Assembly: GCA_004022145.1 (NCBI GenBank)
Contig: RCNU01000019.1
Length of the DNA stretch: 64,000 bases
Source of the DNA: Paecilomyces variotii
Taxonomy: Eukaryota
Reading direction: 5' to 3' (one strand)
Numbering within the stretch: the stretch's first letter is position 1; the number at the start of each line of letters is the position of its first letter. A program made the translations under genes and the position numbers. Below the pieces are notes generated by a model. The model ran no database searches. It saw nothing but the letters and a program-made list of their open reading frames with translations, and had not been told where the DNA came from. Shown piece by piece: positions 50,833 to 61,013 of this stretch.

Positions 50833-53042
50833 ATGATTCTTCTTATAATTTTATTGTTTTTCTACTCGTCCGTGAGTGCAACTTCTCTCTATGCCCGCCT
50901 AGAGAATGGCCTGGCACGCACGCCACAGATGGGGTATAGAATCCTCTTAGAACGTGTCTATTGCTACAATCCAACTAACAGATATAAACCAGATGGAATA
51001 CATACAATACTTACAGCTGCCATCCAAATGAGACCATTGTGCACTCTAATGCGCAGGCACTAGTCAGTTTGGGCCTTGCGGACCTTGGATACCGCTATGT
51101 TACCACTGACTGTGGCTGGAGTGTCGCTGACAGACTCCCTAATGGTACACTAACATGGAATGAGACCTTGTTCCCTAGCGGATTCCCATCTCTCGGTCGT
51201 TATATTCATGATCTGGGATTGCTGTTTGGTGTCTATGGGGATTCAGGGATCAAACTATGCGGCAGTCCGCCAGATCAGGCTGGTAGTCTATGTATTACAC
51301 CTGCCTGTCGTCCAGACAACGCGAATCTGACACCGCATAGATCATGAAAATATCGACGCGAAGACATTCGGGGAATGGGAGATTGATTCGCTTAAATGTA
51401 CTGTACATTATGGCCGGAAGCACCCTCTTCCCATGTGGTATGTACAGTACATGCATATGGCTAACGAGAACAAGATGACAATTGCTATTCCGATGCAGCC
51501 ACTGGCTATCCAGATGCGAACTATTCTCCAAGTGTTTCACCTGAACCGCGCTATTCCATCATGTCACGTTATCTACAAGCACTGAATCGACCGATCCTCT
51601 TCCAGATTTGCGAATGGGGCATTGACTTCCCTGCTCTCTGGGCTCCGGCTATTGGCAACTCATGGCGCATTGGAAATGACATTATTCCACACTGGCGCAC
51701 AGTATTTCGCATTCTCAACCAGGCTGCTCCTCAAGTCAGCTTTGCCAGTTCTGGGCAATGGCCTGACCTGGATATGCTAGAAGTTGGCACAGAGGTCTTC
51801 ACTATCCCCGAGGAGCAGACCCATTTTTCACTATGGGCCATACTGAAATCTCCATTGATAATTGGGGCAGACCTCACCTCAATCAGTAACGACTCCCTCG
51901 CCGTCATGATGGAAAAGGATGTAATTAGCTTTAACCAAGACATTATCGGGACGAGTGCGAGCTTGCAGAGACGCTGGTCCGATGACGGGTACGAGGTCTG
52001 GAGTGGACCGTTATCCGGGAACAGGACGGTGGCGGCTCTCATTAACTGGAAAAGTGAGGAGAGACGGCTGACACTGGATTTACCGGATATTGGCCTCCAA
52101 TATGCCGGAGAATTGCGGAATATATGGGACGGATCAAGTATGACAGTAGTACGGACATCGTATACGTCAAAGATCGCAGGCCATGGTACGATGCTTGTTG
52201 AATTAGGCGGCACTTCTCCAGTTGGGATTTACCCCAGCGAACTATTTTCCTCATCCAGGGGGTGAGTCTTTCCTCTATTTTACTCAAAAGTCATGTACTG
52301 ATTAAGAAGGGATACTCATACCTTCGCTCCTATATACGCCCGCAGCAGCAGTGCACGCTACAACCTCGCTATTACATTCGCACATTGCCTTTCCACTACA
52401 ACACATATAATAGTGAACAGCGTACCAGAAGCTGTTCCTAACTCAACGTGTCATGTCTCTGTCTTCGTGACGCTCGCTGCAGGCTCCAATAACACAATCA
52501 CTATCCACTCGGTCCCGTCCATCAAGTCCATCCAAGTGCAAGAACCGAATTCAACTTACTATGCTGGAGATACCAACTTCACCCTTTCTGGTTCAGCGAG
52601 GATTGTGACATGTGGGGAGGGATTCTGCCAACCTGTAGGGGCAAAGATCGGCTACCTGAGCCCGAACAGCACTGCTGCTGCGCATATCCCTGCCACACTC
52701 ACCGGGGATGGACGCAAGTATGTGGAAATTGATTATATTAATAACGAGATCGCGTTCAACTCATCCTGGGGCTGGGGATCAAACTCACGGAACATCACAA
52801 TCGGTGTCAATGACGCAGACCCAGTACTGCTGGAGGTACCGCTGAGTGGTAGACATAGTGAGTTATACGGACCTGGTCGTGGATGGTGGGATACGGCGAC
52901 TCTTGGGGTATTGACCTCTGGCTGGAAGGAAGGTCTAAATAAAGTCGTGATTGGGAATGAGGGCGGAGAACATGGGTTTCAACCTTATGCGGCCGATTTT
53001 GTGGGATTAAGGGTATATCTTGGAGCTGACGAAGATGCTTGA
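50833..53042 (+). CDS. Secreted GH27 alpha-galactosidase (AglD-like, C-terminal CBM35-like domain); C-terminus supplied by an LTR
   Basis: Signal peptide; TPQMGWN, DCGW, LKYDNC, SWRIGND and DLDMLEVG; 4 introns. Confidence 0.92.
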
Positions 53043-53154
53043 TTGTGCAACTATCTAGGGGCTGAGCTGAACTGATCTATCTGGCCACTACTCTGCTGAC
53101 TAAGCTGGCTGCTGGCGCGGGCGACCACTACTGGAGCCCCTAGGGGCACCGAAA
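53018..53154 (-). repeat. 3' LTR of outer element
   Basis: Matches 60877-61013 except 2 G/A differences; contains palindrome GCCCCTAGGGGC at 53136-53147. Confidence 0.93.
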
Positions 53155-53259
53155 CACCCCCTTCGACTGCGCTGGCAGATAGGTTTAATTCCCTAATTGG
53201 GTAATTTGTTAGGTTTCTTTAGTGTAGTATTCCTCCTCCTAATAGCTGTTTATATTCTG

Positions 53260-53590
53260 AATTAATTTAATATCTAATCTGGACGGGTTGTTTAATCTAA
53301 ACCTATTTAACATCTAGGCTAGACGGGTTGTTGAATCTAAACTAAACCTATTTAACATCTAGGCTAGACGGGCTGCTCGGCGTATATAACTGCTTTGTTA
53401 AAGGTATTTATAATCCAATTTAATGTCTAATCTAGACGGACTCTGATCCTATTTAACATCTTAATCCTAATATTTTTAGCTTATAGTAGCCCTGTTTAAT
53501 GTCTAATCTAGACAGGTCTTCATAATCTAGTTTAATATCTTGATCTAAATAGGTTTCTAATCTAATTTAATATCTAATCTGGACAGGTTA
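53260..53590. repeat. About 8 degenerate ~25-bp repeats inside the outer element
   Basis: Recurring tttaa(c/t)(a/g)tcta(a/g)(t/g)ct(a/g)gac(a/g)gg. Confidence 0.75.
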
Positions 53591-53774
53591 CTCCCCTAAG
53601 CTAAGGCAATTCCTGCGAAGCCTTTAAAGTAATCCTTTTTATTTGCTCCTACTATTTATCGCTGATTAGGCAGATATTATATACCTTTATATAGTTTCTA
53701 ACCCTATAGGATCTCCTCCATTAAGCAGTAGTAAGTATCTAAACTATAACCTAGTCTGCTATAATAGCCGCACC

Positions 53775-59519: not shown

Positions 59520-59819
59520 TATTATAGTGCTAGCCTAAGAGATAAAATAACTAACCTGCTAGCTAATACTTATTTAATTTAAAAAAGTAAGGTCTATACT
59601 CTTCTAAATTATATAAGGAGTTATATAATCTTATAAAGATATTTTTAATATATAGCTTAATTTAAATTTAAGTTCCTTAAATTATATCTTATTTACTAAG
59701 CCTGCCTATAATAGCCTGTTCTAATCTAAATTAGCTAGATAGAGATCCTATAGCTAGTCCTAGTATTAACTACCTTATTCTATCCGTTCTGACCTGCTTC
59801 CTGAGCCCGCACCTTGACA
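59520..59819 (+). repeat. Gypsy 3' LTR
   Basis: tattatagtgctagcc..CCTTGACA, preceded by the PPT. Confidence 0.9.
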
Positions 59820-60864
59820 GTACCTCCCTTTTATATAAAGCTTCCTATTGCGGAGCTTATTTACATACTTATAGGGGTCTTTCCCCTCTAGAGGTGGCTT
59901 ACTATATACCTTCTCCTTTAATATTTATAGTCTGTCTAATATTATTAGTACTGCGGGTAAAGCTATTGCTAGTATTGCTATTTATATACTCTTATAAGCT
60001 ATTCCCTAGTTAATCGCTTTAAAGCAGAGTTGTTAGAATTCCTTTATAAGCATATCTGTTAGTAGTAAAGTTTATTAAGCCTATTTAATATAATAGGAGT
60101 TAGTCTAAGCTAGTATTTTAGACTTAAGCTGTTTAAGCATTAATATTACTGCACTAAAGGGCGAGAGGATTAGGCCTATATTATTTAATTTTATTATGCG
60201 ATCTTTAAACTCAGTAATATATTATTTAATTATTCTATATTAGGATCTAGTTATAATAATAGCTTACTAGAATATAAAGAGTCTGCCTATAATTAAGCTA
60301 TAGTTAATAATCTTTTTAATTGCTTTAATATACTCGTCCGCATATATTAGCTTATTAGGCATAATCCTAATTATTTTAATTAGCCTATAGTCTATCTAAC
60401 TACTAATCTAGCTCTTTATTATTAGGCTAAGCTTTCTCTATCTTTTATAGACGTCTAGTTTGTTGTTTAGTATTAGTCTCCTAATTAAGGTATTAATCAA
60501 GTCCTTACAGTCTATAGTTCTAAGGACTTCCTTAACTAGCTAAAGCTAGTTATTAAAATTGCTATTATTAATTAATTATTCAGCTACTACAGGGATTTTA
60601 TCCGGCAAGGTTATTAGTAGCTTTATCCCTTAATAGGGCGTAGGAGCTAGTTAATCTAGCTAAAGGGTTAACTAAGGAGTTAATAGGATCGTTATTTTAG
60701 AGGTTTAGTATTGCTTATATTCAGGGGGTTTAATTCTAGGTGCTCCTTGCAATTAAGATTATATGGGTTAACGAGCTCTTCTGTTAGATAGGGTGTTTAA
60801 ACTACTATATCTCCTCTAAGATAAGCTGTTTTAGTCCCTATTTAATGATAGTGAGAGATAAGCC

Positions 60865-60876
60865 GGGCTCATAACC
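60865..60876 (-). promoter_or_regulatory. Primer-binding site complementary to the tRNAiMet anticodon arm
   Basis: GGTTATGAGCCC directly abutting the 5' LTR on the minus strand. Confidence 0.85.
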
Positions 60877-61013
60877 TCTTAGAGCTGACGAAGATGCTTA
60901 ATTGTGCAACTATCTAGGGGCTGAGCTGAACTGATCTATCTGGCCACTACTCTGCTGACTAAGCTGGCTGCTGGCGCGGGCGACCACTACTGGAGCCCCT
61001 AGGGGCACCGAAA
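60877..61013 (-). repeat. 5' LTR of outer element
   Basis: 137-bp copy of 53018-53154. Confidence 0.93.

Follow-up and report, generated by a model that had tools for sequence, protein, structure and literature searches.

Short retrotransposons that encode nothing but Gag have been described in plants as TR-GAGs (terminal-repeat retrotransposons with a GAG domain), elements of less than 4 kb with long terminal repeats (LTRs), a primer-binding site (PBS), a polypurine tract (PPT) and a single Gag open reading frame (ORF), which lack enzymatic domains and whose mobilisation is presumed to occur in trans (PMC4350172). Plants also harbor Copia elements whose LTRs depart from TG..CA termini. Tos17, for example, is a TG..GA Copia with a 138-bp LTR, and a preprint on such elements gives the first T as their sole invariable nucleotide, naming in its text TG..GA, TA..TA, TA..CA, TACT, TGTA, and TCCA termini (10.1101/137141); TG..TT (TGTT) and AA..CA (AACA) plant Copia families are known as well (PMC5659011). 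The tips of Ty5 read TGTTG..CAACA (bioRxiv 10.1101/2025.04.25.647736), and both Ty5 and copia are documented to use half-tRNA priming, in which cleavage of the tRNA takes place in its anticodon loop (PMC5371799, PMC10886601). Here, we compare with these systems an element of the fungus Paecilomyces variotii. It occupies positions 53018–61013 on the minus strand of a 64,000-nucleotide stretch of contig RCNU01000019.1 (GenBank assembly GCA_004022145.1), which we refer to in its entirety as the window, and it is split by a nested Ty3/gypsy retrotransposon.

This outer element is probably a dead, non-autonomous, gag-only LTR retrotransposon of the Ty1/copia lineage, 1,946 bp in length and mutated by repeat-induced point mutation (RIP), that would have been mobilised by the proteins of related autonomous copia elements. 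The evidence set out below covers its LTRs and priming signals, a damaged gag frame, a 3' tail in which pol similarity was not detected, and two metagenomic relatives of similar size. A full-text literature search for TR-GAG together with fungal returned only a plant review.

LTRs, target site, and priming signals

The outer element is bounded by two 137-bp LTRs, the 5' LTR at 60877–61013 (TTTCGG...CTCTAAGA on the minus strand) and the 3' LTR at 53018–53154 (minus strand, TTTCGG...CTCCAAGA). Immediately outside them, the pentanucleotide GTATA is found at 61014–61018, on the 5' side of the minus-strand element, and again at 53013–53017, on its 3' side; by our own arithmetic, a 5-bp target-site duplication (TSD) would match by chance about once in 1,024 cases. 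The LTRs agree at 135 of 137 positions, and both mismatches are TG-to-TA changes of the RIP type that lie in the 5' LTR within 24 bp of its internal side. Since the two copies diverge in the bases next to each repeat boundary, the limits of the LTRs are exact and unambiguous. On the minus strand, the LTR reads TTTCGGTGC...GCTCCAAGA, and its termini are thus TT..GA instead of the TG..CA that is usual, but not universal, in LTR retrotransposons. The tips form an imperfect inverted repeat (6/9). Once the nested gypsy element and one copy of its TSD are removed, the outer element measures 1,946 bp.

Both priming signals abut the LTRs. The PBS, GGTTATGAGCCC, spans 12 nt (60865–60876, minus strand) and directly adjoins the 5' LTR, while the PPT, GAAGGGGG, together with the TG that follows it, immediately precedes the 3' LTR (53155–53164, minus strand; GAAGGGGGTG with the TG included). 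Together with the paired LTRs and the short TSD, these signals give the locus the structure of an LTR retrotransposon. All 12 positions of the PBS are complementary to the initiator tRNA-Met anticodon arm, with the Escherichia coli metZ, metW, and metV genes serving as a stand-in for the host tRNA: each of these three genes, annotated in E. coli as initiator tRNA-Met, has an exact match on the opposite strand of positions 30–41, with no match expected by chance. The anticodon arm of initiator tRNA-Met is conserved across domains. In the 64-kb window itself, the initiator tRNA gene was not found, and the sole tRNA gene there encodes tRNA-Thr (AGT; 37381–37452, minus strand). Downstream of the PBS, a putative 5' untranslated leader of 169 nt (60696–60864, minus strand) extends to the predicted gag start.

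An earlier note, made from the letters of the stretch alone, had described most of this architecture, and the description holds: it proposed 137-bp LTRs flanked by a GTATA duplication, ends other than TG..CA with a 6/9 imperfect inverted repeat, a length of about 1.95 kb after excision of the gypsy element, a PBS fitting the initiator tRNA-Met anticodon arm, and a PPT followed by TG before the 3' LTR. The half-tRNA priming that it ascribed to Ty5 and copia likewise has published precedent. Its general statement that TG..CA ends are almost always the ones used by LTR integrases needs softening, since several types of plant non-TGCA Copia elements have been published (10.1101/137141, PMC5659011).

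The gag relic and the 3' tail

The interior of the outer element contains one damaged frame, the first segment of which, corresponding to the capsid part, was delimited at 59820–60695 (minus strand) by phmmer and by an alignment that tolerates RIP. An ATA at 60693–60695 is a possible former ATG, and the alignment with the gag protein P0003 begins there. The frame has 22 stops in 310 codons, compared with 48–49 in the other two frames. All 47 in-frame stops can be explained by RIP, which is uninformative, as any TAA or TAG qualifies. When the frame from 60875, read with X, was compared by phmmer with 1.84 billion representative proteins, 24 matches were obtained at E ≤ 1e-3, four of them at E ≤ 1e-10. 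The best match is P0001, a 250-residue protein of P. variotii (E 8.3e-28, 36% identity), and in the alignment the X of the window frame falls opposite W and Q. A further match, P0013 (1,481 residues, E 2.6e-6), is a complete Ty1/copia polyprotein with the Pfam order weak Retrotran_gag_2, Pol_BBD, gag_pre-integrs, rve, SH3_retrovirus, and RVT_2, and it is with the N-terminal gag of this protein that the window frame aligns. Homology to the gag of a polyprotein in which protease, integrase, and reverse transcriptase (RT) follow in this order agrees with the copia-type lineage that the earlier note had assigned; the motifs that it quoted for a single RIP-damaged frame are also present.

Consistently, the frame scores far above background when each codon is given the best residue that can be reached by reverting RIP changes in TpA context. 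Against P0001, P0003, and P0013, its scores range from 486 to 542 (534 for P0013), compared with means of 143–181 and standard deviations of 13–19 for shuffled sequences (181 and 19 for P0013), while the other two frames remain at background. RIP-compatible identity to P0001 reaches 48%, compared with an observed identity of 34% and 11% for permuted columns. A word-indexed protein search with the correct gag frame yielded 1,434 candidates, none of them significant; because phmmer finds P0001 where the index search gave no significant match, the index is blind to this RIP-damaged query. The same type of search for longer relatives of P0001 gave 802 candidates, none at E ≤ 1e-3, which is weak evidence.

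Across the gypsy insertion site, the frame runs on into the relic of a CCHC zinc knuckle (CX2CX4HX4C; 53731–53772, minus strand) that aligns with the knuckles of P0003, P0010, P0013, and P0023. Its ligand codons now read TAC, TAT, TAT, and TAC, and undoing RIP-type changes could turn each of them back into C, C, H, and C, respectively. The gypsy element entered at the first Cys codon of the knuckle, and the un-mutated copy of its TSD keeps TGC at this codon. The C-terminal end of the relic follows at 53656–53730 (minus strand), with an in-frame stop at about 53656–53658. In P0003, P0010/P0068, and P0023, the gag proteins stop 2–7 residues past an LW.Y motif behind the knuckle, and the stop near 53656, one candidate for the original stop among those in the window frame, matches the position where these relatives end. 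By these comparisons, the frame is a real gag relic, and the ancestral gene would have comprised about 330 codons, encoding a capsid plus one CCHC knuckle.

Between gag and the PPT lies a predicted non-coding tail of about 490 bp (53165–53655, minus strand), with degenerate tandem repeats of 35–45 bp at 53253–53590. When RIP was allowed for and the 3' 506 bp were compared with the pol region of P0013 and with the C-terminal half of the ORF of L001, a metagenomic relative described below, no pol remnant was detected (scores 76–95, shuffled means 69–95). The claim of the earlier note that protease, integrase, and RT are lacking is thus sustained by a tail within the shuffled range, by six interior frames without a Pfam match, and by the small size of the element. 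Since there is a single gag frame and no pol similarity in the tail, the outer element appears to encode gag only. It cannot be an autonomous member of the copia group, because it has no pol of its own in which an integrase would precede the RT. Its structure is that of a TR-GAG: 1,946 bp and hence below 4 kb, with LTR features, the relic of one Gag ORF, and no enzymatic domains.

Relatives in metagenomes

Scanning JGI metagenome contigs with an alignment of five gag proteins (A3) returned 50 pattern stretches, of which two, L001 and L002, were confirmed; among viral contigs, none of 61 stretches was confirmed with the same alignment. A larger alignment of 14 gag sequences (A2) was too little conserved to serve as a scan query. 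L001 and L002 come from two different metagenome samples, are 85–87% identical and circularly permuted, and have LTRs of 148–150 bp and repeat units of about 2.05–2.13 kb, with a total of about 2.2 kb. In L001, 19 nt of flank precede a 148-bp LTR that begins with TGTTGAGAG; the junction of LTR and PBS reads ...GTTGAGA/GGTTCTGAGCCC (here and below, the slash marks the LTR boundary), and GAGGGGGGTG stands directly before the second LTR. Residues 2–308 of the 550-residue ORF of L001 match the gag of P0013 (27–332, E 1e-45), and residues 389–469, the remnant of an integrase C-terminus, match 792–899 of P0013 (E 4e-4). As the L001 ORF thus joins gag to an integrase remnant, L001 and L002 are best regarded as deletion derivatives of about 2.2 kb.

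The two metagenomic elements share with the P. variotii element LTRs of about 140–150 bp, a leader of about 165 nt (164 nt between PBS and ATG in L001, 169 nt in the window), a homologous gag with a CCHC knuckle, and the lack of a functional pol. Their junctions correspond, too. The PPT junction GA.GGGGGTG/T.T and the PBS junction AGC..T.AGA/GGTT.TGAGCCCG (core AGA/GGTT.TGAGCCC) are invariant in all three elements, and DNA identity to the window element is confined to the 16 nt of the PBS junction. Unlike the window element, L001 and L002 carry the integrase remnant in frame, show no RIP, and have LTRs that begin with TG instead of TT; in their PBS, a C replaces the A of the window opposite the third anticodon base. 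The ...AGA end before the PBS is common to both sides of a deep split, with gag identity of only about one third, and the 3' GA end of the LTR is therefore probably a trait of the lineage. The 5' TT start has so far been seen only in the window copy.

These relatives also bear on the TG that separates the G-run from the 3' LTR. The earlier note was right that this dinucleotide is absent from the integrated 5' end, and it suggested that it had been trimmed. Trimming in the window copy only was dropped as the preferred reading, as the same arrangement occurs in L001 and L002: both carry GGGGGTG before the LTR, and the 5' LTR of L001 likewise lacks the TG. On this account, the TG is most simply read as part of the PPT. 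Alternatively, the routine removal of two nucleotides may be a habit of the lineage and not an oddity of the window copy, and the data are compatible with both readings.

Both contigs show signs of repetition. In L002 (1–2171), the two ends are identical over 46 nt and one LTR is present, as in a circular one-LTR form or an assembly with collapsed LTRs, and in L001 (1–2296) the PBS and leader recur after the 3' LTR, with 99 nt identical to positions 155–253. These patterns suggest a multi-copy, possibly active element of about 2 kb in the sampled community. Among the gag proteins, P0009/P0067 and P0020 have gag and knuckle joined, 170–300 residues further on, to an RT-like start recognized by eye, with no Pfam RT match. 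The gap is too short for a protease and an integrase, which suggests further deletion-derivative architectures in the lineage.

The nested gypsy element and repeat-induced point mutation

The gag relic is interrupted by a RIP-degraded Ty3/gypsy (Tf2-like) retrotransposon of 6,045 bp and 19.5% GC on the plus strand (53775–59819). Its LTRs of 300 bp each (53775–54074 and 59520–59819, plus strand) read TGTTACAG..TTGACA, and all 50 differences between them are transitions. One copy of its TSD is GCACC (53770–53774), and the partner at 59820–59824 reads GTACC, a RIP-type C-to-T change. The interior yields an RT_RNaseH_2 match (50.4 bits, cut-off 29.8, E 2.5e-13) at about 57149–57394 and, downstream of it at about 59067–59216, a weak match to SH3_Tf2-1 (16.1 bits, cut-off 30, E 0.013); this is the Ty3/gypsy order. 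RIP is experimentally active in P. variotii, where a Tf2-type retrotransposon with RIP-mutated copies has been described (PMC6300479).

The RIP signature, namely low CpA/TpG and high TpA, is roughly flat over the interior of the outer element (53155–60900 of the window) and ends near both LTR boundaries, at distances of 620 bp and about 1,060 bp from the two sides of the gypsy element. The outer LTRs are almost free of RIP, with 0–2 changes and with CpA plus TpG counts like those of the flanks. The interior mutations could stem from leakage out of the gypsy element, from an interior that was once multi-copy, or from mutation of a linker between short direct repeats. It is quite possible, although we incline against it, that the damage is only leakage from the nested multi-copy gypsy element and is silent on the copy number of the gag-only element. 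Such leakage would fit an interior that reaches no further than 620 bp and 1,057 bp, respectively, from the two sides of a 19.5%-GC gypsy element, the nearly unmutated outer LTRs with their flank-like counts, and the somewhat weaker RIP over the ~150 bp adjoining the right LTR. It is at odds with a signature that changes little over about 900 bp to the right and that ends near the LTR boundary on both sides despite the unequal distances from the gypsy element.

Origin and proposed mobilisation of the outer element

The outer element inserted first, through an integrase-type 5-bp staggered cut, the Tf2-like gypsy element later entered the zinc-knuckle codon, and RIP of the interior followed. 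Because the outer element is without protease, integrase, and RT of its own, these activities would have to be supplied in trans. Its RNA may have been packaged by its own Gag or by that of a partner, reverse transcription would have been primed by a cleaved initiator tRNA (half tRNA), and integration would have been carried out by the integrase of a related autonomous copia element. Such an integrase, whose unusual action in trans we infer, would accept 3' ends in ...AAA on the U3 side (bottom strand) and in ...AGA on the U5 side, not in ...CA.

Several points weigh against this proposal. Both the trans-mobilisation and the unusual integrase specificity are deduced, no autonomous partner having been found, and a propagating non-autonomous family would have to be extrapolated from the single copy examined. 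The 64-kb window holds no second LTR or interior copy, and a 34-nt LTR pattern with two degenerate sites gave no exact match in the JGI metagenome contigs. Pfam recognizes no family at E ≤ 10 in any of six X-read interior frames, and Retrotran_gag_2 stays below its 27-bit cut-off even in relatives, with 24.3 bits for P0007 and 18.4 bits for P0013. The pairing of the PBS was tested on bacterial initiator tRNA genes, not on those of the host, the 3' LTR ends of L001 and L002 were placed from the PBS position and not from a flank, and Z scores near 10, such as those of the capsid model presented below, can reflect a common arrangement in helical proteins.

The points about copy number also feed a rival account, in which the outer element is a one-off deletion derivative: a full-length autonomous copia element would have lost protease, integrase, RT, and RNase H, either by an internal deletion after insertion or by a template switch in the single round of reverse transcription that produced this copy, and no gag-only family would have propagated. 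We consider this doubtful. A single copy was indeed seen, both in the window and in the JGI metagenome contigs, and the lineage does make deletion derivatives, as the 550-residue ORF of L001, with gag fused to an integrase remnant, illustrates. However, the 3' 506 bp hold no pol remnant even under RIP-tolerant comparison, the gag frame reaches the natural stop position of the gag of three relatives, the tail has tandem repeats of its own, and the sizes of leader and LTRs fit a family of relatives of about 2 kb from two metagenome samples.

It is unlikely that the TT start is merely an accident of one integration, for instance of a cDNA TG-TTTCGG that lost two nucleotides at its U3 tip in a family and with an integrase essentially canonical at the 5' end, since the TG between the G-run and the window LTR and the TG start of the L001 and L002 LTRs, which would favor it, are countered by the extra TG that also follows the G-run in both relatives and is missing from the 5' LTR of L001, making the offset systematic, by tips that give a 6/9 inverted repeat only at the observed boundaries, and by a 3' end that is not CA in any case. 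A gag-only element mobilised in trans remains our preferred reading of the locus.

Gag-only paralogues in the host

Many annotated P. variotii strains encode two uninterrupted gag-only "hypothetical proteins", the P0001 and P0002 clusters, of about 200–300 residues and without a zinc knuckle. The two clusters are 37% identical, have locus tags that lie 13–16 apart, and are the closest relatives of the dead gag in the window. An AlphaFold model was obtained for P0001 from an alignment of 14 relatives, and thus for a paralogue and not for the RIP-damaged copy itself (pLDDT 88.5). The structures that this model matches best are retroelement capsids. It aligns with the Drosophila Copia capsid at Z 10.1 over 183 of 184 residues (root-mean-square deviation 14.8, the domains being differently oriented), although a Z of about 10 is indecisive for helical proteins. 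With the same reservation, it aligns with the Ty1 capsid's C-terminal domain at Z 9.6 (90 of 91 residues, root-mean-square deviation 2.6), and with the corresponding domains of Drt2 and p22 at Z 9.1 and 8.9 (PDB 9rxy and 7nlg are among the matches). Foldseek alone gave no match to the model at E ≤ 0.001, its best match being the Copia capsid (E 0.017).

P0001 and P0002 could represent either old copies that escaped or gag genes that became domesticated, and as intact gag-only paralogues they offer candidates for the study of capsid domestication. A far-reaching view, which we regard as speculative and improbable as a whole, would unite the relic, L001 and L002, and the intact host genes in a fungal clade of gag-carrying LTR parasites of about 2 kb. 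Such parasites would use half-tRNA priming and a partner integrase for which 3' ends other than CA are routine substrates (...AGA at U5 and ...AAA at U3, the latter in the family of the window copy), and the host paralogues might be domesticated restriction factors like yeast Drt2.

Insertion site and neighboring features

The outer element lies at the end of a gene for a GH27 alpha-galactosidase (50988–53042, plus strand), which matches Melibiase_2 (55 and 61.9 bits) and Melibiase_C (49.5 bits) and has a weak CBM13-like match. The last open frame of this gene extends into the LTR of the element and ends in ...RVYLGADEDA-stop. In silico removal of the element restores ...RVYD-stop; the insertion therefore lies two codons before the native stop. 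The direct effect of the dead copy would accordingly amount to no more than a small change at the C-terminus of one alpha-galactosidase.

Elsewhere in the window, the ORF at 21391–22323 is identical to a database protein whose 90% cluster counts 17 members, and the 11 of these with a name all come from P. variotii. Another mobile element degraded by RIP is located at 46467–46982 (minus strand), in an AT-rich block (45500–47800, 32% GC). Its X-read minus frame matches DDE_1 (44.1 bits, cut-off 22), a transposase endonuclease domain typical of pogo/Fot1-type elements.

Discussion

Gag-only LTR elements and Copia elements without TG..CA ends have been documented in plants, and the window copy together with L001 and L002 points to the same design in fungi, with half-tRNA priming. 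Such elements would escape LTR finders that by default require both TG..CA ends and a pol domain, so that their number may be underestimated in fungal repeat annotations. Should further copies bear out the TT..GA tips, the integrase of the partner would provide a natural case of relaxed end recognition.

The yeast restriction factors Ty1 p22 and Drt2 resemble the window element in being gag-only coding units of the Ty1/copia lineage (PMC10951436, PMC4599808). They differ from it in having no LTR-element structure, and the window copy is dead, with no evidence for restriction activity here. Closer in structure are Ty5 and copia, in which, as in the window element, a PBS that pairs with the initiator tRNA-Met anticodon arm adjoins the 5' LTR, and which share with it a 5-bp TSD. 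The gag of the window element may also share their copia-type capsid fold, to judge from the model of the host paralogue P0001. In contrast, Ty5 and copia are autonomous elements with TG..CA tips, whereas the window element has gag only and TT..GA tips.

With the plant non-TGCA Copia elements, the window element shares the Copia lineage, a very short LTR (137 bp here), insertion in or next to a gene, and T as the first nucleotide. It differs from them in being non-autonomous and fungal, and TT..GA is not among the terminal types named in the text of the preprint (10.1101/137141). Tos17 is similar in its 3' GA end and its short LTR; the 5' end of the window element is TT, however, so that the element does not share the TG..GA termini of Tos17. 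L001 and L002 do show such Tos17-like TG..GA termini, with their 3' end placed from the position of the PBS.

Finally, the architecture of the window element is the same as that of the plant TR-GAGs, which differ from it in forming multi-copy, transcribed families, whereas the window holds one fungal copy killed by RIP (PMC4350172). Our verdict is that the P. variotii element represents a fungal counterpart of the plant TR-GAG and non-TGCA Copia elements.

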